Source of the DNA: an uncultured Dictyoglomota bacterium
Lineage (GTDB): Bacteria; Dictyoglomota; Dictyoglomia; Dictyoglomales; Dictyoglomaceae
Reading direction: 5' to 3'
NCBI GenBank assembly: GCA_964654465.1
Contig: CAZZIO010000032.1
Span: 58,908 to 122,907, forward strand
DNA length: 64,000 nt
This document shows positions 5,814-48,974 of the stretch, in pieces. Positions within the stretch are counted from its first letter, which is position 1; each line of letters starts with the position of its first letter. The notes under the pieces are model-generated. The model was given only the letters and a program-made list of their open reading frames with translations, did not search any database and had not been told where the DNA came from. A program made the position numbers and the translations under genes.

Positions 5814-8144
5814 CTAAACGGGGCTTTCCAATATGGCAATTGTAGCCCCTTCTCCTCCCTCCGCTAGTGAGGCTAAATAAAATTCTTTTACATAGGGTAC
5901 ACTTTTTAAATATTCGTGAACAGCATTTCTTAATTTACCCGTACCTTTCCCATGAATTATTCTTACTCTTCTTAATCCAGCTAAAAAGGCCTTTTCTAAA
6001 TATTTTTTCAATTCTTCTAATGCCTCATTTACAGTCATCATTCTTATATTAAGCTCAGAAGGAACATTCTCTTTATTATCTCTTTGTATATATACATATT
6101 TATTAATAATATGTTCCTCCTTTGATATAACCTGCTCTAATTCATTCCAAGGAATGTTTATTTTTATAATTCCCACTTGTACTGTAACTATTTTTTTCTC
6201 TCTATCTATATCCAGTACTATACCTTCTTTTTTTGTATTTTTAATCCTTACTCTATCTCCTTCTTGAGGAATATATTCTATATTAACAAATTCCTCTTGA
6301 GAGATAAGCTCCTTTTTAATTAATCTTATATCTTCTTGAAGTTTCTGTGCCTCTTTCATACTAATATTCCCTTTCTGCAATTCCCTAATTATATTTTTTA
6401 CTTTATTCTCTACCTCCATTAATTCCTCCATTATCTCCTTTTTCTGTTTATCCTTTAACTCTTCCTTTTCTTTTTGTATACTCCTCTTCTCTTCTTCTAT
6501 TTTTCTTTTCTCCTCCTGTAACTCTTTCCTAATCTTTTCTACTTTTTCTATTTCTTCTTGAAGCTTTCTTCTTCCCCTTTGTAATTCTCCTATAACTTCT
6601 TCCAATTCTATTTCTTCTTCACTTAGAAAACCCATTGCTCTATCTAAAATTTTTCTTGGCAAACCAAGTTTTTTAGCAATTAAAAGTGCATTACTCTTAC
6701 CAGGTATTCCGATGTTTATTTTATATAAAGGTTTAAGAGTATTCTCATCAAATTCAAGAGAAGCATTCTCCATACCTTCATATTTGGAAGCCAAAATCTT
6801 AAGCTGAGGAAAGTGAGTTGCTATAACATTTATTGTATCTTTACTATGAAAGTACTCCAATAAAGCCACTGCTAATGCAGCGCCCTCTTGTGGATCTGTA
6901 CCTGCTCCAAGTTCATCCAGAATTACTAAAACTTTTCTATCTCCAGTTTTCTCCAAATAATCTATAAATGAAATTATGTTAGTCATATGGGAAGAAAAGG
7001 TACTAAGATTTTGCTCAATACTTTGTTCATCTCCTATATCTGGAAATACTTGATTGAATATTCCAAGAGCAGTGCCTTCTTTAGCAGGTACAGGAATTCC
7101 TGCTTGATTTAAAAGTACAAAAAGACCGATAGTTTTTAATGTTACAGTTTTTCCTCCAGTATTAGGACCTGTAATAACTAAGGTATTAAATTTTCTTCCT
7201 ACTTCTAAACTTATAGGAACAGCCTTTTCTCCAAGAAACGGATGTCTGCCTTCCCTTATAATTATTACAGGATTCTCATCTATAATGGGTATTGTAGCAT
7301 TATACCTTTGTGCCCATTTAATTTTCGCATATACAAAATCCAAATAGAAAGCAGTATTTAAGGTTTCTAAAACTTCCTCTTTATGTTCTAAGAATTGTAA
7401 AGAAAGCTTTCTTAGTATCTTCTCTATCTCTTTTTTTTCTTCAACCTCTAATAAAGCTAACTGATTATTTAACTCAACGATAGAAAGAGGTTCCACATAT
7501 ACTGTGAGTCCAGAAGTAGATTGGTCATGTACAATTCCAGAAATTTTAGTCTTAAATTCTTGTTTTACAGGAACCACATATCTTCCATGTCTTATAGTAA
7601 CAATTTGATCTTGTAAATATATACGCCAATCTTTATTTATAATATTATTTAAAGTTTCTTTGATTTTTTGTTGGATTCTCTCCTTCTTTTGTCTTATGGA
7701 CTTTAACTCAGGAGACGCTGTATCAAGTACTTCAGCATTTTGAATAGCTTTTCTTATCTGTGAATAAAGATCTGATAATACAAATATATTCCTTCCCCAT
7801 AGATTTGGTGCTAAATTTTTAGCTTTATTCTGATAATCTTTCAATTTTTTAAAAGTCTCTAATGTATTAGCAATTTCCTCAAATTCTTCAGGATATATTA
7901 TTCCACCTATCTCTGCCTTCTCAATATAACTTCTTAAATCTTTTACTCCAGAAAAGGTAGGATAACCTAAAGAATAGACTGTTTTTAAAGCCTCTTCATT
8001 TAATAAATGCCATCTACTAATAATATCTATCTCTGTAATTGGCCTCAAGCTTAAAATTAGCTCTTTTCCACCTGTAGTTTCAGTCTCTTTTTCTATCTCT
8101 TTTATAATCTTTTCCCATTCTAATACTTTTAAGGCTTTTTCCAT
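5814..8144 (-). CDS. mutS2: MutS2 endonuclease / ribosome collision sensor
   Basis: ITGPNTGGKT, DELGAGTDP, coiled coil, KOW-like region, C-terminal Smr domain IIHGKGTG. Confidence 0.96.
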   Translation of the reverse strand: MEKALKVLEWEKIIKEIEKETETTGGKELILSLRPITEIDIISRWHLLNEEALKTVYSLGYPTFSGVKDLRSYIEKAEIGGIIYPEEFEEIANTLETFKKLKDYQNKAKNLAPNLWGRNIFVLSDLYSQIRKAIQNAEVLDTASPELKSIRQKKERIQQKIKETLNNIINKDWRIYLQDQIVTIRHGRYVVPVKQEFKTKISGIVHDQSTSGLTVYVEPLSIVELNNQLALLEVEEKKEIEKILRKLSLQFLEHKEEVLETLNTAFYLDFVYAKIKWAQRYNATIPIIDENPVIIIREGRHPFLGEKAVPISLEVGRKFNTLVITGPNTGGKTVTLKTIGLFVLLNQAGIPVPAKEGTALGIFNQVFPDIGDEQSIEQNLSTFSSHMTNIISFIDYLEKTGDRKVLVILDELGAGTDPQEGAALAVALLEYFHSKDTINVIATHFPQLKILASKYEGMENASLEFDENTLKPLYKINIGIPGKSNALLIAKKLGLPRKILDRAMGFLSEEEIELEEVIGELQRGRRKLQEEIEKVEKIRKELQEEKRKIEEEKRSIQKEKEELKDKQKKEIMEELMEVENKVKNIIRELQKGNISMKEAQKLQEDIRLIKKELISQEEFVNIEYIPQEGDRVRIKNTKKEGIVLDIDREKKIVTVQVGIIKINIPWNELEQVISKEEHIINKYVYIQRDNKENVPSELNIRMMTVNEALEELKKYLEKAFLAGLRRVRIIHGKGTGKLRNAVHEYLKSVPYVKEFYLASLAEGGEGATIAILESPV

Positions 8145-13514: not shown

Positions 13515-14540
13515 TTATTCTTCTAAGTAATCTTTTATTTTTTTACTTCTGCTTGGATGGCGCAATCTTCTCAAGGCCTTGGCTTCTATTTGCCTTATTC
13601 TTTCCCTTGTTACATTAAAAAGTTTACCCACTTCCTCTAAAGTTCTTGGTTGATTATCTTCTAACCCAAATCTTAATTTAAGAATCTCCCTTTCCCTCTC
13701 AGAAAGCTCATTCAATAATTCCTCTATATCTTTTTTCAAAGATTTTTGAATTGCAATATCAGCAGGACTCATACCTTTGTTTTCCACGAAATCAGCCAAT
13801 CTATTATCTTCATCCTCACCTACAGGCATCTCCAAGGATAATGGCTCTTGTCCTATCATACTTATCTCTCTTATCTTTTCTACAGGAAGCCTTACCCTTT
13901 CTGCAATCTCTTCTTCAGTTGGCTTTCTTCCAAGTTCCTGTGTAAGCTGTCTTGTAACTTTATGTATCTTATTCATTGTCTCTACCATATGTACTGGTAT
14001 TCTTATAGTCCTTGCTTGATCAGCAATAGCTCTTGTAATTGCTTGTCTTATCCACCAAGTAGCATAGGTAGAAAACTTATATCCTTTCCTCCAATCAAAT
14101 TTTTCAACAGCTTTAATAAGACCAAGATTCCCTTCTTGTATAAGATCTAAAAAAGATAAACCCCTTCCAATATATCTTTTGGCTACACTTACTACTAACC
14201 TTAAGTTAGCCTCAATAAGTTTCTTCTTAGCCTCTTCATCTCCTTCTTCTACTCTTTTGGCAAGTTCTATCTCTTCCTCTGGGGTAAGTAATGGAATCTT
14301 TCCGATTTCTTTTAAATACATCTTTACAGGATCATCTAATTCTATCTCTTCTGGAAGCTCTAAATCTTCCTCAATAGTTTCAGGTATACTATCCTCTTTT
14401 ATATCCACAAATAAATCTTCTGCATCTATCAATTCATGGTCTTCCAAGTATTTTTCTACTTCCTCTATATTATCCTCAGGATAAGGAAATTCCGTCAAAA
14501 CTTCATCAGGAGTTACTTTTTTAGGCTTTTTCTTAGTCAT
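13515..14540 (-). CDS. rpoD: Primary RNA polymerase sigma factor SigA/RpoD
   Basis: [64 protein letters not shown]. Confidence 0.98.
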
Positions 14541-14566
14541 TTAAAATCATCTCCTCCTTAAAAATT

Positions 14567-16309
14567 TCACTTCTTTACTTCTAAAAGACTCCTCAAGAAA
14601 TATATTTCTTCCATAATTTCTTTTTCTTTTTCAAGATCAGTCAATGATTTTGATAACTCCTCTATCAATCTGTTTATCTCCTTTTTTATTCTAAGCTTTT
14701 GAAAATGATCCCACAAGTAGGGAATTATATCTTTTTGTTTTATAAACTCTTCACCTGATAAAATTGCCCTCTCTATAAGGATTCTTTTATCTTCTTCCCA
14801 TTGACTTAAAAATTCTTCTAAACCCTTTTCTTTATCCCAAATCCTCCACTTTTTTAAAACATCCTGATACAACACAAAGGTAAAATCATCAGGACTCATA
14901 TTCTTTATTTGTGTATGTTCAACACCCAATAAAATCAATCCTAACAAAGCTTCTTCCGTTTTTGATACTCCATAATAACGTGTTATTTGAACCTTAGCTT
15001 TATCCTCTGTTATTCTACCAGAAAAAATTCTCTTCTGTATCTCTTTTTGAAGCCCTTCTTCGGGCACTCCTATTCTCTTACTTATTAATGGTAAATATTG
15101 CTTTATTTTTTCTTGCTGGACAAGTATATTTTTACTACGAAGAATGGAAGATGTCAATATTTCAATTATTTCTTCTAATTTTTCTTTAAAGGTCATGGGT
15201 AAATTTAATACATGATCAACAAGAAAATCTAAAGAAGGTTTACTATCTTTAATAAGATTCAAGAATTCATCTTTTGAATATTTTTGTATAAACTCATCTG
15301 GATCTTTTACGTCAGATGGAAGAGATAACCAATATACATCTAAACCTTCCAACTCAAGAATAGATAATGCTCTTTTCCCTGCTTGAAAACCTGCTGGGTC
15401 TTGATCATATCCTAATATCACTTTATTAGTATAATTTTTTAAAAGCTTCGCTTGTGAAGAAGTTAACGAAGTACCTAAAGAAGCCACCACATTACCTATA
15501 CCTTCTTGATGAAGTGAGATAGCATCCATATATCCTTCAACTAAAATTGCCTCCCCATCTCTTTTTATAACTTCCTTTGCTTGAAATAGGGCATATAGAT
15601 TTTTACCTTTACTAAATATCTCACTCTCTGGAGAGTTTATATATTTAGGGTCTTCGCTAGTTATGGTCCTTGCCCCAAAACCTATTATATGACCTCTAAG
15701 ATTAAATATTGGAAAAATTATTCTTCCAGCAAAAGGATCCTTCCATTCATCTTTTACGTTATATAAAATTTTAGATTTAATGATATCCTCTTTTTGAAAA
15801 CCTTTTTTAATAAGATATCTAAGAAGAAGCAAGGAATTTCTAGGAGAAAATCCCAAAAGAAATTTTTCTTGAGTCTCTAGTGAAATACCCCTTTTTTTTA
15901 AATATAACCTTCCTTCTGCTCCATATTTACTTGTTAGATAAAGATGATAAAACACACCAGCAGACTTATAAATTTCTAATAAAACATTACCTTCTGCTGT
16001 AATAGTCTCTGATTTTTTTGGCAATTCTAAACCTACCTCATGTGCTAATTCTTCTAATGCTTCTCTGAAGGTTATATTTCTGTAATTTATAAGAAAGGAG
16101 AAAACATCTCCCGCAGCCCCGCACCCAAAACAATGGTAAAGTCCTTTATCAGGACTCACATAAAAAGATGGCGTTTTTTCCTGGTGAAAAGGACAAAGGC
16201 CCACATAATTTTTCCCACTTTTTTTAAGACTCACATATCTTGAAATAACATCTACTATATTAATCCTTTGTTTAACTTCCTCTACAAAATCTTCCATCAA
16301 AAAACCCAT
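14567..16309 (-). CDS. dnaG: DNA primase
   Basis: CPFHQEKTPSF zinc finger, KYINSPE, TOPRIM VEGYMD, KDPDE. Confidence 0.97.
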   Translation of the reverse strand: MGFLMEDFVEEVKQRINIVDVISRYVSLKKSGKNYVGLCPFHQEKTPSFYVSPDKGLYHCFGCGAAGDVFSFLINYRNITFREALEELAHEVGLELPKKSETITAEGNVLLEIYKSAGVFYHLYLTSKYGAEGRLYLKKRGISLETQEKFLLGFSPRNSLLLLRYLIKKGFQKEDIIKSKILYNVKDEWKDPFAGRIIFPIFNLRGHIIGFGARTITSEDPKYINSPESEIFSKGKNLYALFQAKEVIKRDGEAILVEGYMDAISLHQEGIGNVVASLGTSLTSSQAKLLKNYTNKVILGYDQDPAGFQAGKRALSILELEGLDVYWLSLPSDVKDPDEFIQKYSKDEFLNLIKDSKPSLDFLVDHVLNLPMTFKEKLEEIIEILTSSILRSKNILVQQEKIKQYLPLISKRIGVPEEGLQKEIQKRIFSGRITEDKAKVQITRYYGVSKTEEALLGLILLGVEHTQIKNMSPDDFTFVLYQDVLKKWRIWDKEKGLEEFLSQWEEDKRILIERAILSGEEFIKQKDIIPYLWDHFQKLRIKKEINRLIEELSKSLTDLEKEKEIMEEIYFLRSLLEVKK

Positions 16310-17344
16310 TTAGAAGAACCTCCATGGCTTTGGGATAAAGATACTTTCATATAACTCTATTGCATATCTATCTGTCATTCCTGCCAAAAAGTCTTTAATT
16401 TTTATTACTAAATCATCTTCTGGAAGATTTTGAGGAAGTTTTTTAGGATTTTTCATAAAGTAATCAAAAAGTCCATATAATAAGAGTTTAACCCTTTCAT
16501 TTTCTGATTTAACATGCGGATTTATATACAAAGTCTCATATAAAAAATTTCTAAGCTCCTCTATAGCATCAAGAATATCATATTCAAATTCAAGATGATC
16601 TTTATTTAGGCTATTAAAGACTAAATTCTTTACCATGGTATCTATTCTTTCTTTGTGTGTTTTCCCAAGAATCCTTATAATCTTCTCAGGTATATACTTC
16701 TCATCTATCACTCCTGCTCTTAAGGCATCATCAAGGTCATGATTTAAATAAGCTATAACATCTGAAAATCTTACAACTTCCCCTTCTAAAGTCTCGCAAA
16801 CCTTGTTACTAAAACAAATTCTAAGATCTTTTTGCCCTTTGCTATGCTGTAATATACCCATCCTTACCTCATATGTTAAATTTAACCCCTTGCCACCTTT
16901 CTCTATTTTATCAACAACTCTTAAACTTTGTTCAGCATGAGAAAAACCAGAATAACCATAAGACTTTAAAATCTCGTCAAGAACATCCTCTCCCATATGT
17001 CCAAAAGGAGTATGGCCCAAATCATGCCCTAAAGCTATAGCCTCGGTGAGATCTTCATTTAAAGAAAGAGCCCTTGAAATAGTTCGAGCTATTTGTGATA
17101 CTTCAAGGGTATGAGTTAAACGAGTTCTATAATGGTCTCCCTCTGGAGCAAGAAACACTTGAGTTTTATGTTTTAACCTTCGAAAAGCCTTAGAATGGAT
17201 AATCCTATCTCTATCTCTCTGAAAACATGTCCTTAAAGGACATTCTTCTTCAAAGACAATTCTACCCTTGCTTTTACTACTCAAAGTAGCATAAGGTGAA
17301 AATAAAATTTTTTCTTGTTCTTCTAATCTCTCCCTGATTAACAT
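16310..17344 (-). CDS. dgt: Deoxyguanosinetriphosphate triphosphohydrolase-like HD protein
   Basis: FQRDRDRIIHSKAFRRLKHKTQVF, RTRLTH, HDLGHTPFGH, GMTDRYA. Confidence 0.94.
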   Translation of the reverse strand: MLIRERLEEQEKILFSPYATLSSKSKGRIVFEEECPLRTCFQRDRDRIIHSKAFRRLKHKTQVFLAPEGDHYRTRLTHTLEVSQIARTISRALSLNEDLTEAIALGHDLGHTPFGHMGEDVLDEILKSYGYSGFSHAEQSLRVVDKIEKGGKGLNLTYEVRMGILQHSKGQKDLRICFSNKVCETLEGEVVRFSDVIAYLNHDLDDALRAGVIDEKYIPEKIIRILGKTHKERIDTMVKNLVFNSLNKDHLEFEYDILDAIEELRNFLYETLYINPHVKSENERVKLLLYGLFDYFMKNPKKLPQNLPEDDLVIKIKDFLAGMTDRYAIELYESIFIPKPWRFF

Positions 17345-36961: not shown

Positions 36962-37882
36962 TCACCTTCCTCTTTCTTTAAGTTTATTAACCATTTTATC
37001 ATACTCCTCTTTATTCACAAAACCTACAAGCAAGTATTCTTGTCCTTCTGAAAAAATAAGTTCTGGATATAAATAAAATTCCTTTATCTCTTTAGTATTC
37101 TTAACATGAAGTCTTGGCCCTGTACAATGTATTACTTTGTCTCCTATTTTAATATGTTGTTTATCCCAATAAGAAACTTCTAAACTCATATCAATATATT
37201 CTTTAACTTTTTCTTCTATTCCTTTGATATCTATATTAGGTTTTTCTTTTAACTTAATAACAAATCCATGTTTGATATCACTATGCCCTTCAATATATCG
37301 ATATAAGCCATATTCTTCTAACACCATACCTGTTAAGTCCTCAGCAGTATGAGCTTGTAATCTATATGTCAAAGAAGGAAATACTATATTTACTATTTCC
37401 TGAGGTAAAGGACCAAATACATTAGGTCTCGTTACTATAACTTCCTCTCCAATCCCTATCAAAAGATCTGCGTTTCTTTTTAAATAAGGATAAATAAGTT
37501 CAAAATGCTCACAAACAACTTTTTTTTCATTTTCCAAGGCTTTTAGAATAGATTCTGCCAATATATATATGGGATAGAAAGCTAATTCAAACCTAACATC
37601 CACATGATAAATAAAATCATAAAACATACTTCTTTGAAAATCTTCTATTATAGGCGCTGGACGTCTATATATACCTTCATCATCATTAGTTAAACTTAAC
37701 CCTGGAAACAATCCTCTTATAAGTAAGGATTTTCCTGAACCAGAATCTCCAATTACTCCAATAAGTTTATCATCAGAAAGTAAAAAATTCTGAGAAATTA
37801 CAGATCCAAGAAGCATAAGTCTTGCTTCTCCACGAGGGGCATAATAAATAGCTTCCTTTAGAAGCACTTTTGTATGAATCAT
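36962..37882 (-). CDS. P-loop NTPase fused to a divergent AlaX/tRNA_SAD-like metal-binding editing domain; function unknown
   Basis: Walker A GDSGSGKS (aa 45-52); C-terminal R..AHTAEDL and [14 protein letters not shown] resemble AlaRS/ThrRS editing motifs HxxxH and CxxxH..NT.EI. Confidence 0.75.
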
Positions 37883-37888
37883 TTTTTA

Positions 37889-38416
37889 TTATTTCCAAAA
37901 AGAATTACCCTCAGAATCTATGGCAACCATAGCAGGAAAATCTTCTACCTCAAGATAATAGATAGCTTCTGGTCCTAATTCATGAAAAGCAAAAACTTCC
38001 ATTTTCTTTATCTTATCTCCCAAATAGGCTCCTGCACCCCCTACTGTTACAAGATAAACTCCCTTATACTTTTTAAAATACATTTCTGTTTCTTTATCTC
38101 TTTTCCCTTTTCCTATAAAACCGACTATTCCTTGAGAAAGTAGCCATGGCACAAAAGGATCCATTCTTTTACTTGTTGTAGGGCCAGCTGATCCTGAAGC
38201 TTTTCCAGGAGGTGCGGGTGATGGCCCCATATGATAAATAAGACTATTTTTTAGTTCTAAAGGTATATCTTTCCTTTCTTTTATTAGATCAACAAGAAGT
38301 TTACATGCTTGGTCTCGAGCAGAATATATAGGACCATCTAATAATAACCATTCACCTACTTTTAAAGATTTAAGTTCATTTATCTCATTTGGAAGATTAA
38401 TCTTTTTAAATTTCAT
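37889..38416 (-). CDS. Class I fumarase/Fe-S hydro-lyase beta subunit (probable mesaconase)
   Basis: ARDQA, AGPTTSKRMD, IGKG, GGAGA, LGPEAIY.LEVEDFP. Confidence 0.92.
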   Translation of the reverse strand: MKFKKINLPNEINELKSLKVGEWLLLDGPIYSARDQACKLLVDLIKERKDIPLELKNSLIYHMGPSPAPPGKASGSAGPTTSKRMDPFVPWLLSQGIVGFIGKGKRDKETEMYFKKYKGVYLVTVGGAGAYLGDKIKKMEVFAFHELGPEAIYYLEVEDFPAMVAIDSEGNSFWK

Positions 38417-39255
38417 ATTTCAAACCACCCATGTCTTATAGCAGAACATTGCATATTTATGGCCAAAGTAAAACCAGCAATGTGAACAGGAAATACCTCA
38501 ATATGTACTCCTAATGCAGTAGTCTTACCCCCTAAACCTCCTGGACCTATATTTAACTCATTAATCTCCTTTAACAATTTTTCCTCCATTTTGGCCCAAT
38601 ACGGATCATTATTCTTTTCTTTCAGAGGTCTTAAAGTAGCTTTTTTGGACAATAAAGCAGCCTTTTCTAAAGTTCCTCCTATACCTATTCCAACAAGTAA
38701 TGGAGGACATGCATTTGGACCATGGTTTTTTACATGATTGACTATCTCACTAATAAGCTCATCCTCAGTTATTGTTGGTATAAGGCTTTTAACAATGCTG
38801 GCATTTTCACTCCCAAAACCTTTTATCAATATATAAAACCTTAATTTATCCCCAGTTTTTATTTCGTAATGCACTATTGCAGGTGTATTATCTTGTGTAT
38901 TTATCCTTTTAAGAGGGTCTTTAACTACAGAAGGCCTAAGATAATTTTTTTTATAAACCTCTGATACAGCCCTATTTATGAGATCGTTAAGATTTCCTTT
39001 TATACATACCTTATCTCCTATTTCTACAAAGGCAATCACCATCCCACAATCCTGACATATAGGAATTCTTTTTTCTTTTGCTATCTTTGCATTCTTAATA
39101 AGTATATCAAGAACAATTCTTGCATTCTCATTATTTTCAATATTATATGCCTCTAAAAGTGCATCTTCCACATCCTTAGGTAATTCAAAGTTAGCTTTTG
39201 TTATGACATGGACTAATTTATTATAAATTATGTCTCCCTCTATAACTCTAAACAT
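38413..39255 (-). CDS. Class I fumarase/Fe-S hydro-lyase alpha subunit (probable mesaconase)
   Basis: PICQDCG, KGFGSEN, ACPP, GPGGLGG.TT, C-terminal QCSA.RH. Confidence 0.92.
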   Translation of the reverse strand: MFRVIEGDIIYNKLVHVITKANFELPKDVEDALLEAYNIENNENARIVLDILIKNAKIAKEKRIPICQDCGMVIAFVEIGDKVCIKGNLNDLINRAVSEVYKKNYLRPSVVKDPLKRINTQDNTPAIVHYEIKTGDKLRFYILIKGFGSENASIVKSLIPTITEDELISEIVNHVKNHGPNACPPLLVGIGIGGTLEKAALLSKKATLRPLKEKNNDPYWAKMEEKLLKEINELNIGPGGLGGKTTALGVHIEVFPVHIAGFTLAINMQCSAIRHGWFEI

Positions 39256-39562
39256 CTATTTTCACCTCAAGTAAAGGAGCATGTTGCTGAGCCCCATAAA
39301 CATCTGAATCTCCGGGACTTCCTGATGGAACTTTTCTTTTAATATTTGCTTTAACTGCACATACAGGATCAAAGTAAATAACCGAAATTACATCTGATCC
39401 TTTGAGCCCATACAAGTTTGCCCAAAAATTTTTTGAAAAATAGTCCATATTTTTAAGTTTTTCATATACTTCCTTTTCCTTAAAGATTATATCGATAGTT
39501 AAAATAAAAGGACCACTATTTTTTGTTCTTATAACTTTTGCTAATTCCACCATACTCCTCAT
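39248..39562 (-). CDS. DUF4387-like small protein
   Basis: LAKVIRTKNSGPF.LT.DI and GDSDVYGAQQHAPLL; immediately follows the AtuA-like gene. Confidence 0.8.
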   Translation of the reverse strand: MRSMVELAKVIRTKNSGPFILTIDIIFKEKEVYEKLKNMDYFSKNFWANLYGLKGSDVISVIYFDPVCAVKANIKRKVPSGSPGDSDVYGAQQHAPLLEVKIDV

Positions 39563-39567
39563 AATAA

Positions 39568-40908
39568 CTATACCTCTACCACTTTAATAGGAAATTCATA
39601 TTCGTCAAGTTTTATAAGATGATATAATTTAAACTCAAAAACTTCCCCCCATATAACCTCAGAAGGAGAGAAAGGAAAGGCAAGATTACCTGCTGTTGCT
39701 ATTCTTCCTTTATAACCATAATGAAGCAACGTAGATCTTATATATCCTAATATCATCTTTGTTATATTAATATCCTTACTTATGACCTCTATAACAAGAC
39801 CTAATTCATGAGATACACCATTAAATCTTTCCCATTCACCCATTACTCCATTCTTTCCATATACATGAAAATAAATTTGGTAATCATCCGTCATATCTCT
39901 AAAGTTTTCTCTTACTAATTCTCTCTGAATCTCCAATATTTCATCTATTTGTGAAATCATGATAGGATCCCTAATACCTGCTATACATACACCTCTTATT
40001 CCAACAAACTTTGTCCCTTCTACTTTTAACCACTTTTCTTTTCCTTCTATAAATCTTGAACCCTTTACAATAACTGTTTTCTCATCCTTTTGAGTAAAAG
40101 TGGTAGTTGTCAAATCAATAATTCCATCTGGTCCATGTAAGAAATAAGGATCACTTTTTTCATATAATGTATGAGCAGCAACAGATGTAACTGTACACTT
40201 TCTATTCTCATTTATGGGAAATACTTCAAAATGATCATCAAAGAGAACACCTATAAGTCCATCTCTTCCACTTCCTGGTTCTGCTGCAATAGCCCCACAT
40301 TCTAATATTTTACCTAAATGAAGAGATAATCCCTTAGAATAACCATAATGTATAGGTAAAGCAGAAAAAGGTGCAGGGTCATAACTTCGTCCACAAATTA
40401 TTATATTCACACTTTTTTTATAACCTTCTATAAAAGGATCAATACCAACTTGTGCTACAATATTCGTAATACTTTCCAAATCCTCTACCCCAACTTCTGA
40501 GGAACCATCCAAGGTTTTAATATTTCCGTTAGTTATGGATTCCTTTATTTTATCCTTAGGAATATCCGTATATATTATAGCTATTTTCATGTGCCAATTA
40601 TTTTCTTCCAGTATCTCCTTTACTATTTCAAAGGTCCAATCTACAGATGATTTACTGCCACATCCCCCAGCACTTCCTATAAATAATGGAATATCCAATT
40701 TATGAACCATATTAATTAGGTATTTTAAATCTCTTTTTGTAGCACCACGATCTACAAATGAGATACCCCTTCCAAGATAATATGGGCCAGGATCAGTAGA
40801 CCCAGCATCAACAGCAACTAAATCTGGCTTTATTTCTAAAGCATTATAATAACTTTGTTCTGGAAAACCATATCCAAGAATTGCTGTGGGTGAATAGATT
40901 TTAAACAC
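39568..40908 (-). CDS. AtuA-like (DUF1446) protein
   Basis: SPTAILGYGFP, DAGSTDPGPYYLG, GRSYDPA, KILECG, AAHTLYEK, AGNLAFPFSP. Confidence 0.8.
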   Translation of the reverse strand: MFKIYSPTAILGYGFPEQSYYNALEIKPDLVAVDAGSTDPGPYYLGRGISFVDRGATKRDLKYLINMVHKLDIPLFIGSAGGCGSKSSVDWTFEIVKEILEENNWHMKIAIIYTDIPKDKIKESITNGNIKTLDGSSEVGVEDLESITNIVAQVGIDPFIEGYKKSVNIIICGRSYDPAPFSALPIHYGYSKGLSLHLGKILECGAIAAEPGSGRDGLIGVLFDDHFEVFPINENRKCTVTSVAAHTLYEKSDPYFLHGPDGIIDLTTTTFTQKDEKTVIVKGSRFIEGKEKWLKVEGTKFVGIRGVCIAGIRDPIMISQIDEILEIQRELVRENFRDMTDDYQIYFHVYGKNGVMGEWERFNGVSHELGLVIEVISKDINITKMILGYIRSTLLHYGYKGRIATAGNLAFPFSPSEVIWGEVFEFKLYHLIKLDEYEFPIKVVEV

Positions 40909-42151
40909 TTTTTACTAAGCCCTTCCTTCTTAGAATTTGAAGTGTTCTATTCATTTCATTATTTACTATCATTAAACCCTCATCTACTCCCATGCCAGGT
41001 TTTGCTAATATCTGATCTGCTTGAACTGCAAGACCTATATGCACAGAAACTTGAGCAGACCTATCTGTCTCATTACAACTTCCTCCTATATAAGTACCAA
41101 TGTTATGTCCTTTACAATATAAAGCTGCCTCAATAGAATTATGAATACTACCTAAAACAGGAGTTTTTATTTGTATCATATCAACCGCCTCTGCTTTTAT
41201 GAAATCTCTAATATCTTCAAGACTATTACACCATTCATCAGCAACTATTTCTACTCCCAAACCTCTTCCTTTTAGCTCTTTTCTCAATTTGCTTAAAAAC
41301 TCAATTTGTTTCTCCCTATTTTCTAAATCAACAGGACCTTCTATTCTGAGTTTATGTGGAAATGAAATTTTTTCAAGCCTCGCTAAATATTCTACTATTT
41401 CATCAATATTATAATTAAATGCTATACCTATAGTTCCATATACATCTATGTGAAAAATTGGTAAATATCCTTCCTCTCCTAATATTCTTACCCTTTCTTT
41501 GAGCCAGCCTAAATATTCTATTAGTTTTTCTCCTCTCCACCCTAATTTTGTCTCTACATTATTTATTAAACCATGTGGAAGAACATCTACTCTCTTCAGT
41601 ATCATTTTGTCCACACTAATATAACGATCGTCTCCTGATTGAGCAAAAATTGGAATTCTCTTTATATCAAAATTTAAATTATACTCCTCTCTTATTATCT
41701 CAGTCATAGTCTTCCTATAATGTTTTGAAAACACATCAAGAATTGCTTGAGAAATTCCGTACCTTACTGCGGTATGTAACTTATGATCATTTATTTTGAA
41801 ATTGTCAATCTTAACACATAAATCCTTAAAACTTTTCCATTCATCCTTTAACAGAAAAGGAAAAACATGTTGTTCCAAAATTTGTAACCATTCACTAGTT
41901 TTAAAGAGAGGATCTCTTCCTCCTGCACCAGAATATTGAATAGCAGTACAATCCCCATAAGCTATCTGATCATCCTCCAAAATGAAGATAATAGATATAC
42001 TTTCTCCTTTCTGCCTTATAGCCTCATAACCTTCAGTTAATGGTACTCCTCTATAGGCGAAACCATCTTCACGAGCCCCTGCCTTAATAGCTCTTTGGTC
42101 ATCAAAATAGAAACCAGAAAGTCCTATCGAATATAGTACATCTTTAATCAT
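40901..42151 (-). CDS. mal: Methylaspartate ammonia-lyase
   Basis: DDQRAIK, QYSGAGGRDPLF, LPHGLIN, HIDVYG, ADEWCN, QIKTP, GGSCNET. Confidence 0.96.
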   Translation of the reverse strand: MIKDVLYSIGLSGFYFDDQRAIKAGAREDGFAYRGVPLTEGYEAIRQKGESISIIFILEDDQIAYGDCTAIQYSGAGGRDPLFKTSEWLQILEQHVFPFLLKDEWKSFKDLCVKIDNFKINDHKLHTAVRYGISQAILDVFSKHYRKTMTEIIREEYNLNFDIKRIPIFAQSGDDRYISVDKMILKRVDVLPHGLINNVETKLGWRGEKLIEYLGWLKERVRILGEEGYLPIFHIDVYGTIGIAFNYNIDEIVEYLARLEKISFPHKLRIEGPVDLENREKQIEFLSKLRKELKGRGLGVEIVADEWCNSLEDIRDFIKAEAVDMIQIKTPVLGSIHNSIEAALYCKGHNIGTYIGGSCNETDRSAQVSVHIGLAVQADQILAKPGMGVDEGLMIVNNEMNRTLQILRRKGLVKSV

Positions 42152-42155
42152 TTAT

Positions 42156-43607
42156 TTACCTCGGTCTTCCTATTAATCTTCCCTTACTGATTGCATAGAT
42201 ATCATCAAGTACCATTTGAAAACTTACATCTCTTTTCTCAAAACGAGCTCTCTCTTCCAATCTTTCCTTATGAAAAGTTTTTACCTCTTCGTCAAAAGGT
42301 AGATTTCCAAAATCAAAAAATCTAACAGCACCTTCATTATCCCGTACTGGCATTACTCTTCCATAAGTATATTTACTTGGTGCAAAAGGTACATCCAAAA
42401 TTCCTGAAGAGAAAGCCTTAACAGCTCCCACAGCTATATCCCCTTTCCCTATTTCATAAACCCTATTGAGGATAGATCTTACTTCTCTTTCAATAATATA
42501 TTCCTCTTGGCTTAACTTCTCTTCATCTATAAAATTTTGGTTTTCTAACATATTTAAAACCTGACGAGTATTCTTAAGGGCTGAAGCATTTGCTTCTTTT
42601 GTGGGAATACCAATAGCTTCCTGGGGTGTTTTTACAATTATCTTTGTTACCTTCGATATAGCCCCAGCTATAGTCCCGAAACTTATAACTGCGTAAGCTT
42701 TAGCTTCATCTTCTGGAAAACCTCCCATCCAGTGATGTAGAACAGTAGTTATATGAACATCATAATAACCAAAACTCGCAAGATATTCCCTTGTTAGTTT
42801 CTCTAAAATTTTTATTGAAGCTACATCTTGAATAATATTACCACATTGTCCATATCCTACACTAAAACTTTTCACTCCTTGTTCTGCTGCAAGAATGGCT
42901 TCTATTATTCCAATACTTATTGAGATAGACGGTGGAACTAAAGTACCAGTGAGAGGGCCAAAAGATTCTCTATTTATTAATATTCCTTCTTGTGCATATA
43001 TTCCTACTAGATAATCTATATATTGCCAATATAAAATTGAATTTTCCAATGGAACATCCTTAGCATAAGGAATATTGTAAGTAATTCCTCCCCCTTCAAA
43101 AGATGTAAAACCTGCAGCCAAAGTAATCTCAGCAAGAAGTCTTGCATCTGGAGTACCATGTCTTACTTCAACAGGCACTTTTACACTTTCTATGATTTCT
43201 CTACAAGCTTTTACTCCATAATTAACAGCTGGAAAACCATTAAGAAGATATCTTCCTTCTTTTAAACTTTCTTCTATTCCCAATTGTGCTTCTTTATATC
43301 TATTCTGTCGAGTATAACTATCAATAGTTGTAGGTAAGATATCTGCTCCTCCCTCATCTTGTAAATATTGAAGAAGAACAATATGATCTTTTAAAATTGG
43401 AATACCTGCTCTTGGTTGTAATAAGGTTTTATTATTCTGAGATGCTTCTCTCAATACATAATCGGTCTGCTTTTCTTTAGGTAAAGATGTTAAATATAAA
43501 AAGGCTTCTTTTAAATCAACTTCTCTACCTGTAGGCCATGAATTCAAGACATCTTCTCTCATATTAAGAAAATATTTATGATCCCATTTCTTATTTTTTA
43601 TAAACAT
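42156..43607 (-). CDS. glmE: Glutamate (methylaspartate) mutase epsilon subunit
   Basis: [58 protein letters not shown]. Confidence 0.96.
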
Positions 43608-43619
43608 AATCTCATCCCT

Positions 43620-44987
43620 CTATACTTTGTTTATATATTTTTCTACAAGACTCATAGATTTATCCTTATAGATCTCCGAGATTACTCCTATAGCAAACAT
43701 TATATATTCCTTATCTACATAAAAGGTAGGATTTTTAGGCTTCAATATAAAAGGTTCATCATTAGAATATATTACACCCTTTAAACTTTCCACTCTATAA
43801 GGATTATATATTAAAGGCCCACCTGTACATACCACTTTATCCAATTCCCTTAAATCTTTCCCATATTGGAAAAGCAATGTTCCCATAGGGGTATACACCA
43901 TTTCTATATGCCCTACATGTCTCTCTGTAGCAATCTTTACAGCAAAATAAGCAAGAATAGCGTCTAAATGTAAATCTTCATCATTTTTTGGAATATAACT
44001 CGTATTTATGTTTAAAAATTTTACTTTTTCCTCTATAACTTTAACCTTATCATGTGAAAAACTTTTTATAATATCTTTTTTTGCAGACTCAAATAAAGAT
44101 AGTGCAGATACTCTAACCCCCAAATCTCCTTCCACAGATCTTTTTACATATGGCTCTTTTAATCCCTTTAAGATTACATTATTCTGGGTAGGTTCTCCCT
44201 TTGCTACAGAACAAACATCGGTAGTTGCTCCTCCCACATCAATTAATAAACATTCACCATATATCTCTGAGAAACTTTCCAAACCCTTTAATACAGCAAG
44301 TGGTGTAGGCATTACTATACCGTCTATTATTTCTTGCACTTTATCTAATCCCTTTGCATGTATAATGTTTCTTAAAAAGACCTCTCTGATAATATTTTGG
44401 ACCTTTTCTATATTTATAACTCCATATTCAGGCATTACATTCTCTGTTATGTATATTTCTTTACTATTAGATAAAAAAATATTTTTTATTTCATCTTGTA
44501 AATCTTTATTTCCAGCATAGATAAAAGGAATATTTAAGGGAAGCCTTGATAATTTTTTAGCATTTATTATTGGATAGTATCTATTTCCCCCATCTGTTCC
44601 CCCAGCCAAAATTATAATATCTGGCTTTAAATAAAGAATCTCGTCCAAATCCGAACTTGTAAGTTCATAGGAATAGATCTTAATTACCTTTCCCCCTGCT
44701 CCTAAACTTGCTTTCTTAGCTGCCTCAGTAGTTAAATCTGGAACTAAACCTATAGCAATTATTTTTAAACCTCCAGCAGCACTGCTTGTAGCTTTTTTAA
44801 TATTAAAATCCCTTATATTTAGTCCAGTTTGTCTTTCTATTTCAGAAATTACATTTTGAAGACCTATCGTTACATCTTCATTTACAGTAGATGGATATTT
44901 TGCTCTCCCTATAATTTCACTTTTATCTAAATCAAAAGCTACACCTTTAGTAAATGTACTTCCTATATCAAATATGATTGCCTTCAT
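43620..44987 (-). CDS. glmL: Glutamate mutase reactivating factor GlmL (MutL of the glm cluster)
   Basis: DIGSTFTK, SSAAGGL, LAGGTDGG, MPTP, DVGGATTDV, VEGDLG actin-like ATPase motifs. Confidence 0.93.
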   Translation of the reverse strand: MKAIIFDIGSTFTKGVAFDLDKSEIIGRAKYPSTVNEDVTIGLQNVISEIERQTGLNIRDFNIKKATSSAAGGLKIIAIGLVPDLTTEAAKKASLGAGGKVIKIYSYELTSSDLDEILYLKPDIIILAGGTDGGNRYYPIINAKKLSRLPLNIPFIYAGNKDLQDEIKNIFLSNSKEIYITENVMPEYGVINIEKVQNIIREVFLRNIIHAKGLDKVQEIIDGIVMPTPLAVLKGLESFSEIYGECLLIDVGGATTDVCSVAKGEPTQNNVILKGLKEPYVKRSVEGDLGVRVSALSLFESAKKDIIKSFSHDKVKVIEEKVKFLNINTSYIPKNDEDLHLDAILAYFAVKIATERHVGHIEMVYTPMGTLLFQYGKDLRELDKVVCTGGPLIYNPYRVESLKGVIYSNDEPFILKPKNPTFYVDKEYIMFAIGVISEIYKDKSMSLVEKYINKV

Positions 44988-44989
44988 AA

Positions 44990-45406
44990 TTATTTATCTA
45001 ATCCTAAATCTTTTTTTAAATCTCTAATAACTTCATCTGGCATTGTTTTTGGTGGATATACTCTATTAAATCCTAATTCTTTAAATTTCTTTTCCACTTC
45101 TTCCCAATTTTTTTGGCCTATTCCCAAATTTCCACCTATATACAACAATACATTATCAAGACCTGCCTCTTGTAGTTTTTCCCTGAATCCTCTACAATCA
45201 AGCTCAGCATGTCCATATAAAGATGAAACTAAAATAGCTCTTGCATCAGATTCAATCGCTGCTTTTATGAAATCTTCTTGAGAAGAAAGAACTCCAATAT
45301 TAACCACATCAAAACCTGCAGATCTTAAAGCATAATCCAAAATTCTTAAACCAACCGCATGTACATCCGCCCCTATTACTCCGAGAACCACCGTCCTCTC
45401 ACCCAC
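44990..45406 (-). CDS. glmS: Glutamate mutase sigma (B12-binding) subunit
   Basis: GADVHAVG (DxHxxG), SSLYGH, YIGGNL; GTG at 45406 fits SD GGGGTG (ORF track starts at 45415). Confidence 0.95.
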
Positions 45407-45411
45407 TAAAA

Positions 45412-46509
45412 TCACCCCTTAATAAGATTAAATATTAATAGAGATGTATTATAAAGATTATCTAATTTAATTTTCTCCTCCTTAGAATGAGCATTCTCCA
45501 TACCTATCCCCACATTTATAGCCTTTATACCATAAGAATTTAGAATATTAGCATCACTTCCTCCCATAGTATAAGTAAATACTGGATTCTTTCCCATTTT
45601 ATTTAATATGCTCTCTATATACTTTACTAATGTTTCATTAGGATCAATAGAAAAACCTTTGTAAAGACTTTCTTTCTTTAAATCAAAACTTCCCCCTCTA
45701 TCCTTTAATGCCGAAAGTTCTTTTTCCATATTTTGCCATTGTGTACTAAGTTTACTCTTATCTATACTTCTAAACTCACCCTCCAGATAAACTTCCTCTG
45801 GAACTATATTTGTAGCTCTTCCACCTTTTATAATACCAACATTAGAGGTTACATCTTTTTCTATTCTTCCCCATTTAAGTTTCAATAAAAACTCAGAAGC
45901 AAGAAGAATAGCATTTATTCCTTTCTCAGGAGAGGTACCTGCATGGGAGGCTTTACCAAATATCTTTAAATAAAACCTATCATGATATGGGGCACTAAGT
46001 ATTAACGTACCAACATCACCTTCTCCATCTAAGACATATCCCTCTTTTGCGTGTAAAAGTGAAAGATCCACGTTTTTAGCCCCTAAAAGTCCGATCTCTT
46101 CACTAACAGTAAAAAGAAATTCTACTTTTCTATTTTTAATATTATTTTCTTTTATTGCAGTTATAGCCTCTATTATAGCTGCTATTGCAGCTTTATCATC
46201 AGCCCCCAAAATAGTGTTTTTGTCACTAACTATGTAATCACCTTCAATCTTTGGATTTATATTTTCACCGGGATCTACTGTATCCATATGAGCGGATATT
46301 AAAAAAGGTTCTCCTTCACCATCCATAATTGCTATTAAATTCCCTGAACTCCCACCTATTTTTTCACCTGCAAAGTCCTCATAAACTTCCAAACCTAATG
46401 CTTTTAACCTACTCTTTAAAAATTGAGAAAACTCTTTTTCCTTAAGAGAAGGGGAAGGTATTTTGATTATTTGAAAAAAAGTATTAATGAGTCTTTCTTT
46501 ACTTAGCAA
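45412..46509 (-). CDS. M20-family peptidase T-like metallopeptidase
   Basis: [30 protein letters not shown]-terminal HSKEE. Confidence 0.9.
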
Positions 46510-47299
46510 TCATTTCACTCCTTTCAATTTCAACCTGCTCTACTTTCCATCCTACGTTAAGCAATTTATTTAATATTCTTTCAAATCCCACAGAATCACC
46601 TGTGGTATATACTTTTACAATAGGATTGGCCAAATCCTCTTTTGACAAAATTCTTAATATCTCTTGGGATGGATCTATAATTGGAATTTGGGGATATAGT
46701 CTTTCTATAACAGGTTTGATAAAAGGTAAATGAGTACATCCTAAAACTAATCCATCAATATCTTTATCAATTAAAGGATCTATACATTTTTTAAGCTCGT
46801 TTATTATTATTTCACCATCTATTATCCCATTTTCAATAGTTTCCAAAAGAGGGCCTTCACTACAAGATTTTACATATACTTCTATATCTTGGGATACAAA
46901 CTTATTTATTAAAGTAGGATAAATTTTACTTTCTTTTGTTCTACGGGTTGCAAGAACGCCCATTTTTTTCCAATTTGTATTTTTTATTCCGTCAATAGCA
47001 CTTAATATAATACTATATATCTTTATATTATAATCTTTAAACTTATCGAGTAAATAATCATAAGCAACAGCTGATGCAGTATTACATGCAATTATAATTT
47101 CTCCAATATCCAATCTTGTAAAAAACTCCACGATTTCTGATACTCTTTCCTGAATAAATTCTACCTTCTTAATACCATAGGGGAAATATTTTGTATCTCC
47201 TAAAAAATAAACTTCATCGTAAATTTTTCTTTCAACAACTTCTTTAAGAACAGAGAGACCACCGACACCAGAATCTAAGATACCAATCTTCTTACTCAT
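46499..47299 (-). CDS. murI: Glutamate racemase
   Basis: DSGVGGLSV, PYG, ACNTAS and LGCTH catalytic cysteines. Confidence 0.95.
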   Translation of the reverse strand: MSKKIGILDSGVGGLSVLKEVVERKIYDEVYFLGDTKYFPYGIKKVEFIQERVSEIVEFFTRLDIGEIIIACNTASAVAYDYLLDKFKDYNIKIYSIILSAIDGIKNTNWKKMGVLATRRTKESKIYPTLINKFVSQDIEVYVKSCSEGPLLETIENGIIDGEIIINELKKCIDPLIDKDIDGLVLGCTHLPFIKPVIERLYPQIPIIDPSQEILRILSKEDLANPIVKVYTTGDSVGFERILNKLLNVGWKVEQVEIERSEMIAK

Positions 47300-48974
47300 T
47301 TTTTACTTCTCCCTTTCTATATAATTCTATAGCTTCAATAATCTTTTCTATAAGTCTATCCTGATATTCATCTCTTAACAATAATTTTCTATCCTCATCG
47401 TTGGTTAGAAAACCCATTTCTATAATTACAGATGGTATAGGAACTCTGGAAAGTACATAGAACCTTCCTTTTATACTTCTTCTAACAAGAAACCCACTAC
47501 TGTTGAAAATATTGAAAAGCATATTAACTAATCTCTCTGATAAATCAGTAGCATAACAAATCTCAATACCTCTAACATCATTGGAAAAAGCTGCATTTGA
47601 ATGAATACTAATAAACAAAGCAGATGTGATAAGATTATTATTCAAGTTTATAGAAGAATTAACAATTTTTACACGATCATCCAAGGAAATATTAGAATCA
47701 TCACTACGTGTTAGAATAACATTGTAACCTTTCTGTCTGAGGGTTTCGGCAAGTTTAAGTGAGACTTTCAAATTAATATCTTTTTCTTTAATATCTCCAT
47801 ATATAGCACCAGGATCAGTACCTCCATGTCCTGGATCAATAAAAATAGTAAAATCATTATTTTCTAATTTATTTTCCTCTGAACTTAGCGCTTCCTTTCT
47901 AAAAGATATTTTTAGTGCATTTTCCCCTATTTCTTCCGCAGTTTGAATTGAATCTGTATATGTCTCAAAAACTAATCTCATAATCTTTTTACCTTCATCT
48001 CTTAAACCAAATCTTAAAATCTTAACAGGATATACATTTATGGTTAACTCTTGAGAAGTCAAAGAAAAAGTCGAACCTATGAAATCATAATAAATTCTTG
48101 GAGGATCATATAAAATCTTTTTTTCCTGAAAGGTATAAGTTCCAAGAAAAGTAAGAAAAAAATCTACACTATCCTTTTCCTCTTTCCATTTTAAATCTGT
48201 TAATACCGATTGAACATTAGTATTTTGTTTTTGGGTTTTCTCTTCTGTTATATCATTTCCCAAAAATCTGACATAAATATTACCATCATTTAGTTTAATA
48301 TCATAATTAGGGATTTTATCTTTAAATTCTATTACAACTCTAACAATATAAGGAGCTACATTAAATTGGGAAAAACGAATATTTTTAATATTAGCATCTT
48401 TAGGTATAATTTCTCCTTTGTTGTTTATATAAACTGTATTTAAAAGGTCAATCACAAGGCGAGAAGGATTTTGCAATACTAAAGTTTTTACTTCAACAGG
48501 GGATTCTGCTTTAAAAGCTATAGATAGTAAATTTTTAGAATATTTTATTTCTAAAACTTCATGAACAATAAAAATAGTATTCTCTTTTAGATAGATTCTA
48601 TACCCCAATAATCTAAAAAAAGATGACAAAGGAAAATATATAACATCTTCTCTTATAATAGGATATAAAAGGGTAGTTTCTTTCTTATTTATTATGCACT
48701 TTTTATCTCCAATGTTTGCGGAAAAAACCTCTTTTTTTTCTCGATAAAGAACTACCTTATTATTTTCTTGGGAAAAATCATATTTAAAGGTTGATGCAAA
48801 CAAGGGTAAAGGCATATATATTTCTGAATCTTTTATTTTCAAAACAGTAAGAATTTTAGTTTTCTCGCCCAAAAAATTTATTTCAAGAGAAGAGGGTTCT
48901 TCTCCCAAAATTATTGCTGAAAGATGAATACTAAAAAACAAAAAAAATAAAATATATATGCTTACTTTCTTCAA
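47292..48974 (-). CDS. N-acetylmuramoyl-L-alanine amidase with AMIN domains
   Basis: Signal peptide, two AMIN-like repeats (NPSRLVIDL, DPPRIYYDF), Amidase_3 IDPGHGG..EKDINL..SIHSNA..IEMGFLTN. Confidence 0.92.
   Translation of the reverse strand: MKKVSIYILFFLFFSIHLSAIILGEEPSSLEINFLGEKTKILTVLKIKDSEIYMPLPLFASTFKYDFSQENNKVVLYREKKEVFSANIGDKKCIINKKETTLLYPIIREDVIYFPLSSFFRLLGYRIYLKENTIFIVHEVLEIKYSKNLLSIAFKAESPVEVKTLVLQNPSRLVIDLLNTVYINNKGEIIPKDANIKNIRFSQFNVAPYIVRVVIEFKDKIPNYDIKLNDGNIYVRFLGNDITEEKTQKQNTNVQSVLTDLKWKEEKDSVDFFLTFLGTYTFQEKKILYDPPRIYYDFIGSTFSLTSQELTINVYPVKILRFGLRDEGKKIMRLVFETYTDSIQTAEEIGENALKISFRKEALSSEENKLENNDFTIFIDPGHGGTDPGAIYGDIKEKDINLKVSLKLAETLRQKGYNVILTRSDDSNISLDDRVKIVNSSINLNNNLITSALFISIHSNAAFSNDVRGIEICYATDLSERLVNMLFNIFNSSGFLVRRSIKGRFYVLSRVPIPSVIIEMGFLTNDEDRKLLLRDEYQDRLIEKIIEAIELYRKGEVKNE

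Follow-up and report, generated by a model that had tools for sequence, protein, structure and literature searches.

The closest described relative of the system considered here is the two-subunit citramalate lyase CmlAB. In a recent preprint (bioRxiv 10.64898/2026.01.16.699985), cmlAB of Raoultella planticola, provided by the Berg laboratory, serves as a CoA-independent citramalate lyase. Escherichia coli is described there as growing on mesaconate with cmlAB and the host fumarase, growth being lost on plasmid curing; the product named is acetate and the reaction is treated as reversible. An earlier study (Kronen & Berg 2015, PMC4682846) notes that a DUF1446 gene follows mal both in Enterobacteriaceae and in Dictyoglomus thermophilum, and states that this gene is often mis-annotated as methylaspartate ammonia-lyase; it also reports that E. 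coli citrate lyase is without citramalate lyase activity, so that it was then unclear what becomes of (S)-citramalate in E. coli O157. We found no primary description of CmlAB in the literature, most subscription journals lying outside the search, so one may exist. Here we analyze an AtuA-like (DUF1446) gene and its DUF4387 neighbor in a methylaspartate-pathway operon of an uncultured Dictyoglomota bacterium of the family Dictyoglomaceae. The window, meaning the whole stretch of DNA analyzed, comprises 64,000 nucleotides (GenBank assembly GCA_964654465.1, contig CAZZIO010000032.1, positions 58,908 to 122,907 of the forward strand).

Judging from sequence and model comparisons, we consider it highly probable that this pair, hereafter cmlA-cmlB, is CmlAB as it occurs in Dictyoglomaceae: a citramalate lyase of two subunits, which would bind a nucleotide and operate without CoA or an acyl carrier protein. 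The main supports for this assignment are gene context, the lack of an alternative route and conservation across the phylum. The initial annotation of the stretch, which was made from the DNA letters, had already proposed that the two genes form an enzyme cleaving or activating citramalate, and its cleavage reading gains support from full-length homology to both chains of Protein Data Bank (PDB) entries 9ERQ and 9EVF and from a genome in which no alternative lyase was found. It had further anticipated that the pair would give the AtuA/DUF1446 family a function. A citramalate lyase function does appear to apply, but it is not new, given structures released in October 2025, a preprint of January 2026 and a family that already had a proposed function. 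The enzyme has been identified and solved by others, and the contribution of the window is a member from another phylum together with a small survey of lyase types.

A sequence search of the PDB aligned residues 2-436 of the 446-residue CmlA with residues 5-438 of the 456-residue chain 9erq_A (E 5.4e-137, 460 bits), with 219 identities in 435 columns as counted by eye and an identity of 49% to 9evf_A according to Foldseek. Similarly, residues 2-103 of the 104-residue CmlB matched 9erq_B (E 1.9e-26). The two subunit chains occur together in 9ERQ and 9EVF, where chain A carries the molecule name "Citramalate lyase, subunit A (cmlA)", and 9erq_B is named "Citramalate lyase, subunit B (cmlB)". One of the two entries, with a release date of 2025-10-22, is titled "Citramalate lyase - AMPPNP - citramalate complex"; the title of the other, dated 2025-10-08, is "Citramalate lyase - ADP - pyruvate complex". 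A template-free AlphaFold2 model of CmlA (pLDDT 96.1) retrieved 9evf_A as the only PDB match at E <= 0.001 in Foldseek (E 8e-66, TM 0.95/0.93, rmsd 1.8), and comparison with 48,161 representative chains in VIA-align 2 gave 9erq_A a Z of 53 over 445 aligned residues, the next row standing at Z 9.3. The other VIA-align 2 rows cover only CmlA residues 301-423, and class I aldolase barrel rows in Foldseek have TM values of 0.13-0.27 with rmsd >10. For the N-terminal two thirds of CmlA, the structure searches gave no usable fold besides 9ERQ/9EVF. Residues of CmlA conserved in the wider family include D34, G36, D39, G41, G84, R174, D177, H197, K200, E203, C204 and E297, and the C-terminus of CmlB holds a conserved GD.DVYGAQQHAPL stretch.

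Operon organization and described counterparts

The pair belongs to a run of eight open reading frames (ORFs), glmS-glmL-glmE-mal-cmlA-cmlB-mesA-mesB, which are tightly packed and all on the minus strand in the ORF list of the window:

glmS, 44990-45415 (-), glutamate mutase B12-binding small subunit; Pfam B12-binding, 8.5e-15
glmL/mutL, 43620-44987 (-), glutamate mutase reactivating chaperone; Pfam MutL, 7.6e-162
glmE, 42156-43607 (-), glutamate mutase large subunit; Pfam Met_asp_mut_E, 2.9e-221
mal, 40901-42151 (-), methylaspartate ammonia-lyase; MAAL_C, 3.6e-114, plus MAAL_N; TIGR01502, 578 bits (cut-off 286)
cmlA, 39568-40908 (-), AtuA-like, 446 aa; PF07287 AtuA/DUF1446, 74 bits (cut-off 22.8)
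cmlB, 39248-39562 (-), DUF4387, 104 aa; PF14330, 3.2e-37
mesA, 38413-39255 (-), class I fumarase-type hydratase alpha, putative mesaconase; Pfam Fumerase, 7.2e-102; NF004885, 336 bits
mesB, 37889-38416 (-), class I fumarase-type hydratase beta; Pfam Fumerase_C, 4.2e-53

Gaps of 2 nt (glmS-glmL), 12 nt (glmL-glmE, the largest), 4 nt (glmE-mal) and 5 nt (cmlA-cmlB) are accompanied by overlaps of 8 nt at mal/cmlA, 8 nt at cmlB/mesA and 4 nt at mesA/mesB. ORF coordinates, Pfam and NCBIfam bear out what the initial annotation had read for this region, namely the gene order, gaps of at most 12 nt and the two 8-nt overlaps. Its boundary for glmS at 45406 likewise agrees with our analysis: the likelier start is the second GTG at that position, which has AAGGGG 8 nt upstream and a better ribosome-binding context than 45415. 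A scan for regulatory sites was uninformative, returning 62 promoter-like sites (76.9 expected) and 11 terminator-like sites (7.0 expected), with none between the eight genes. The mesAB hydratase is the sole class I fumarase-type gene of the genome by tblastn. The best PF07287 stretch in CmlA spans only residues 93-208, marking a divergent branch of the AtuA/DUF1446 family.

Taken as a pathway, GlmS and GlmE, kept active by GlmL, would convert glutamate to 3-methylaspartate, from which Mal would produce mesaconate. The class I fumarase-type MesAB would then yield (S)-citramalate, and CmlAB would split citramalate into pyruvate and a two-carbon unit, acetate, filling the position that CitDEF holds in clostridial clusters. 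The operon would accordingly represent a complete known variant of the methylaspartate pathway with no step missing.

Like the CmlAB of 9ERQ and 9EVF, the window pair combines an AtuA-family subunit of ~450 aa with a DUF4387 subunit of ~105 aa, encoded by adjacent genes after mal. The two systems differ in sequence (~49-50% identity) and in phylum, and the clade of the window organism is not firmly placed with the enterobacterial one. A second counterpart is found in E. coli O157:H7 Sakai, where the genes run glmE-mal-ECs_0760-ECs_0759-transporter-fumD and ECs_0760 (456 aa) matches 9erq_A at 970 bits. The window shares the glmE-mal-cmlA-cmlB order with this cluster, its CmlA being 48% identical to ECs_0760 and its CmlB 47% identical to ECs_0759. 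In contrast to the window, the Sakai cluster includes genes for a cobalamin adenosyltransferase, a transporter and a LysR regulator. The hydratase differs as well: in the window a split alpha/beta enzyme comes directly after cmlB, whereas in E. coli the transporter comes next, followed by the single-chain FumD.

Public annotation of CmlAB lags behind the structures. In the Sakai record (NC_002695 846933-848617), cmlA appears as "3-methylaspartate ammonia-lyase" and cmlB as "acyl-CoA synthetase". The cmlA-cmlB pair is present in 1126 of 5426 complete E. coli genomes, for which eight sampled RefSeq rows give "AtuA family protein" and "DUF4387 domain-containing protein". Named database relatives of the window CmlA are labeled in the same way, or as "3-methylaspartate ammonia-lyase".

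A more remote comparison is offered by AtuA of the acyclic terpene utilization cluster of Pseudomonas, in which PF07287 is fused to DUF4387. This protein belongs to the same Pfam family as CmlA but is distant; proteins of the AtuA type consist of a single chain of ~600 aa (615 aa in Thauera), and their presumed substrate is a CoA ester. Among at least 20 family representatives longer than 600 aa, 15 were scanned, and all 15 had AtuA and DUF4387 fused in that order. One representative of 1096 aa (P0150) holds AtuA, DUF4387 and a family III CoA-transferase domain in one chain, which hints that some superfamily members act on or beside CoA esters.

Citramalate-cleaving routes in the genome and across mal loci

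The genome containing the window (1.91 Mb, 72 contigs, 99.97% complete) was searched for other enzymes that might cleave citramalate. Pfam CitF and the citrate-lyase acyl carrier protein had no match in it, and HpcH/CitE had a single match, to a 587-aa frame of a different contig, whose 22 bits fall short of the cut-off (25). In tblastn, neither seeds for CitD, CitE, CitF, CitC, CitX and CitG from clostridial loci nor CitE-like and thiokinase-like seeds from another mal locus (L021, described below) matched the genome. CoA-transferases of families I and III were likewise not found in the genome (CoA_trans and CoA_transf_3, no match each). Three HMGL-like genes lie on contigs C35 and C40, none of them on C32, the contig of the window. 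All three were rejected as citramalate lyase candidates, being LeuA, a homocitrate-synthase-like gene beside an aconitase-type dehydratase, and CimA beside LeuB, all in biosynthetic contexts. The initial annotation had stated that the window contains no cit, CoA-transferase or HMG-CoA-lyase-like gene; this holds, and no catabolic HMG-lyase-type gene is found in the whole genome either. A genome-wide search for citrate/citramalate lyase subunits, which it had suggested as a check, found none by Pfam or tblastn.

An assembly in 72 contigs leaves room for a canonical CitDEF encoded in an unassembled part, but at 99.97% completeness, and with 0/6 Cit proteins found by tblastn, we give this explanation almost no weight. 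Relatives speak against it too. Across the 11 genomes of the phylum, CmlA is present in all (62-92% identical to that of the window in the other 10) and CitF in none, including two single-contig genomes (G083 and G084). CmlAB is the only citramalate-cleaving route found in these 11 genomes. The best named relatives, from Dictyoglomus/Dictyoglomaceae, are 79% identical for Mal and 71-72% for CmlA.

The same searches bear on the division of labor at this step. The solved relative binds AMPPNP and ADP, and the P0150 member is fused to a family III CoA-transferase; both observations would fit a pair whose role is confined to activating citramalate, by an ATP-dependent kinase or ligase reaction, with C-C cleavage left to a separate, unrecognized lyase. 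We regard this arrangement as very improbable. The depositors call the two-chain enzyme a lyase, and one of the entries contains pyruvate, the cleavage product. Furthermore, in the preprint cmlAB alone, together with the host fumarase, sustained growth on mesaconate, and the genome of the window has neither a CitE/HpcH-type lyase above threshold nor a CoA-transferase.

To place the operon among other mal clusters, one genome per species was scanned with a Mal alignment; 589 loci were confirmed and the 80 most similar were kept, a biased set that consists mostly of Bacillota. Their lyase content was mapped with the window proteins and with seeds from the loci, and related genomes among them are not independent. 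CmlA or CmlAB lies near mal in 16 of the 80 loci and CitD/E/F in 44; a CitE-like lyase with a succinyl-CoA-synthetase-like (thiokinase-like) pair occurs in two, and 18 have none of the three types within the DNA around mal. No locus has both CmlA and CitDEF near mal. The order mal-cmlA-cmlB recurs in 14 loci that carry both cmlA and cmlB. The initial annotation had raised the question of mutual exclusivity between the two lyase types. It stands within clusters (0/80 with both) and for 14/16 genomes with a mal-linked CmlA, but it is not strict at the genome level: CitF is found in 60 of the 80 genomes, namely 2/16 of those with a mal-linked CmlA versus 58/64 of the others.

CitDEF with CitC/X/G, as in Clostridium tetanomorphum and C. 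tetani, serves the same pathway step as CmlAB and follows mal and mesAB in the 44 loci. In contrast to this similarity of position, the proteins are unrelated to CmlAB, and none of CitD/E/F/C/X/G is present in the genome of the window. CitDEF depends on three maturation enzymes and on an acyl carrier protein whose prosthetic group is phosphoribosyl-dephospho-CoA.

The two loci with the third lyase type (L021, at 13551-16609, and L062) encode a CitE/HpcH-type lyase and a succinyl-CoA-synthetase-like pair (ATP-grasp_2/Citrate_bind, CoA_binding/ligase) downstream of mal. Gene content was read on L021, where the lyase and the pair come after a gene for a 306-aa protein (see below), RNase PH and Ham1. 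Neither CitF nor CmlA was found in the L021 and L062 genomes. This arrangement suggests a third pathway ending, with a citramalate thiokinase and a citramalyl-CoA lyase. The three-way split of mal clusters into CmlAB, CitDEF and CitE-like plus thiokinase-like types offers a simple annotation rule for the last step of glutamate fermentation.

Two further features of the surveyed loci were recorded. In ten of the 80 (L014, L016, L019, L032, L033, L035, L037, L038, L039 and L066), mal is immediately followed by genes resembling the D component of 2-hydroxyglutaryl-CoA dehydratase and a BcrAD/BadFG-type activator ATPase. Either lyase type occurs in these loci; the pair is not in the window operon, and the genome of the window has one weak activator-like match elsewhere. 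In another locus (L068), arranged cmlA-cmlB-glmS-glmL-glmE-mal, a single 258-aa frame (6345-7121, +) encodes DUF4387 (CmlB) followed by B12-binding (GlmS), and may be either a true CmlB-GlmS fusion or the result of a lost stop codon.

Paralogs and tree position of CmlA

The AtuA/DUF4387 superfamily comprises 2080 clusters at 50% identity, and its members occur in several orphan operons. In one paralog operon, seen in six genomes (L085-L090; G022, G024, G048, G064, G040 and G060, the last with the copy L090), a GntR/FCD regulator is accompanied by CmlA-like and CmlB-like genes, two ABC permeases, a solute-binding protein and two ADP-ribosylglycohydrolases, with no link to glutamate genes. Pfam domains were assigned for L085 and for three L087 genes, the other four loci being matched by ORF sizes and order. 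A different pair (L092, in G075) stands with an AraC regulator, an M20 peptidase, a fumarase-type alpha gene, an acetyl xylan esterase-like gene and a fumarase-type beta gene. Further pairs (L093, L094 and L095) have other neighbors: TctABC transporter genes and LamB/YcsF; an Opp-type ABC system, a C26 peptidase and a racemase; or a sigma-54 activator, a major facilitator superfamily (MFS) transporter and an M20 peptidase.

Such paralogs raise the question of whether the window pair acts on another substrate, like the CmlA'/CmlB' of the transporter operons, with citramalate being excreted or handled by another enzyme. Two trees were built, both leaving out a partial CmlA at a contig end (L005). 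The second contains 36 rows; five distant representatives were omitted and eight named relatives were added, and the rows include four Dictyoglomaceae relatives that break the long branch of the window. At 20 columns that separate the 16 mal-linked from the 6 paralog sequences, the window CmlA has the mal-linked residue at 13.

Several observations weigh against the assignment of the window pair as CmlAB. In the 36-row tree, one unresolved fork joins the Dictyoglomaceae, the main mal-linked clade (including E. coli O157) and the transporter-operon paralogs, so the window clade is not placed inside the mal-linked one. A joint clade of Dictyoglomaceae and mal-linked sequences costs 2.0 log-likelihood units (approximately unbiased (AU) test, p 0.349), and the test does not reject it. 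The first, quick tree, dominated by the long branches of distant rows, put the window beside the paralogs with an SH-aLRT support of 86%. The identity of the window CmlA to the paralogs from non-glutamate contexts (44-48%) is near that to mal-linked CmlA (48-53%), and at seven of the 20 discriminating columns its residue is not of the mal-linked type, matching the paralogs at 3 and neither group at 4. At the genome level, two of the 16 genomes with a mal-linked CmlA (G033 and G060) carry CitF elsewhere. Of 79 scored genomes (G007 was not scored), 22 have a CmlA homolog with an identity of 42% or higher, and 7 of the 22 also have CitF; the homolog is the GntR-operon paralog in G022, G024, G048 and G064, that of the AraC-M20-hydratase operon in G075, and mal-linked CmlAB in G033 and G060. 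Finally, the reference enzyme is assigned its function by the molecule names and titles of its PDB entries and by its use in one preprint.

Even so, we think it improbable that the window pair is a paralog with a different substrate. The pair overlaps both mal and the hydratase gene by 8 nt, and its mal-cmlA-cmlB order recurs in E. coli O157 and in the 14 further loci noted above. CmlA is retained in all 11 genomes of the phylum, every one of them lacking CitF, the 13 columns of mal-linked type speak for the same affiliation, and the pathway would have no end if the pair acted elsewhere.

Predicted chemistry and neighboring genes

If the pair is CmlAB, the ligands of the solved relative allow a mechanism to be sketched. 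We infer that cleavage of a free carboxylate requires activation of the acetate-side carboxyl group, and that ATP would phosphorylate this carboxylate of citramalate. Such a phosphoryl transfer is consistent with AMPPNP being bound alongside the substrate and ADP alongside the product. The acyl phosphate would play the role of the thioester in citrate and citramalyl-CoA lyases, and cleavage would give pyruvate and acetyl phosphate, from which acetate kinase could form acetate with recovery of ATP. Alternatively, the enzyme may hold the nucleotide as a cofactor or effector without consuming it. Glutamate fermentation has a low ATP yield and could hardly sustain a lyase whose ATP expenditure is not recouped, which would leave a nucleotide that is either recovered or not consumed.

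Acetate kinase is present in the genome, in support of the acetyl phosphate route. Its occurrence without a phosphotransacetylase was considered as a hint of acetyl phosphate formation and rejected: PTA_PTB is absent, but a PduL-type phosphotransacylase is present. Against the phosphorylation scheme, the literature searched contained no paper on citramalyl phosphate, ATP-dependent citramalate cleavage or a citramalate kinase, and the preprint names acetate. We advance only tentatively, and with more doubt than conviction, a broader proposal in which CmlAB would work via citramalyl phosphate and release acetyl phosphate, at no net ATP cost after the action of acetate kinase, AtuA/DUF4387 proteins would form a broad class of acyl-phosphate-dependent C-C lyases, and a gene downstream of mesB, encoding a 306-aa protein, would be a helper of the glutamate mutase pathway.

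The operon is flanked by this gene on one side and by three further genes on the other:

306-aa P-loop protein, 36962-37882 (-), Walker A motif; start 6 nt beyond mesB, with a 4-nt overlap with RNase PH
N-acetylmuramoyl-L-alanine amidase (AMIN, Cu_amine_oxidN1), glutamate racemase and PepT-like M20 peptidase, 45412-48974 (-), upstream of glmS; mutual overlaps of 8 nt and 11 nt

No Pfam family matches the 306-aa protein at threshold, the signals being sub-threshold ones for P-loop families (ABC_tran, TsaE) and for tRNA_SAD at the C-terminus. The gene occurs in 18 of the 80 mal loci: 8/16 with CmlA, 6/44 with CitDEF, 2/2 with the CoA-type pair and 2/18 with none of these. In an even sample of Clostridia, where mal is found in 12/151 genomes, 8 of the 150 scored genomes (G007 was not scored) have the 306-aa gene, all 8 with mal on the same contig and within ~11 kb, and no Clostridia genome without mal has it. 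The gene is linked to the methylaspartate pathway irrespective of the type of lyase in the locus. A gene-RNase PH-Ham1 run in two other loci had suggested a housekeeping neighbor of RNase PH, which is rejected by this co-occurrence with mal in Clostridia. The protein was also considered as a missing cobalamin adenosyltransferase; there is no such gap, as a CobA-type gene is present, and a PduO-type gene was not found in the genome.

On the other side, the M20 peptidase gene stops a few bases short of the position where glmS probably starts. The glutamate racemase gene is single-copy in the genome by tblastn, and a MurI gene precedes glmS in 10 of the 80 loci. Through the amidase, racemase and peptidase, the pathway may be supplied with D-glutamate and peptide-bound glutamate that arise in cell-wall turnover.

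Several sequencing runs labeled as hot-spring metagenomes contain this stretch, although most of them may be the runs from which the DNA itself came. Should the organism be thermophilic, its CmlAB could provide a heat-stable counterpart of an enzyme that synthetic pathways already employ.

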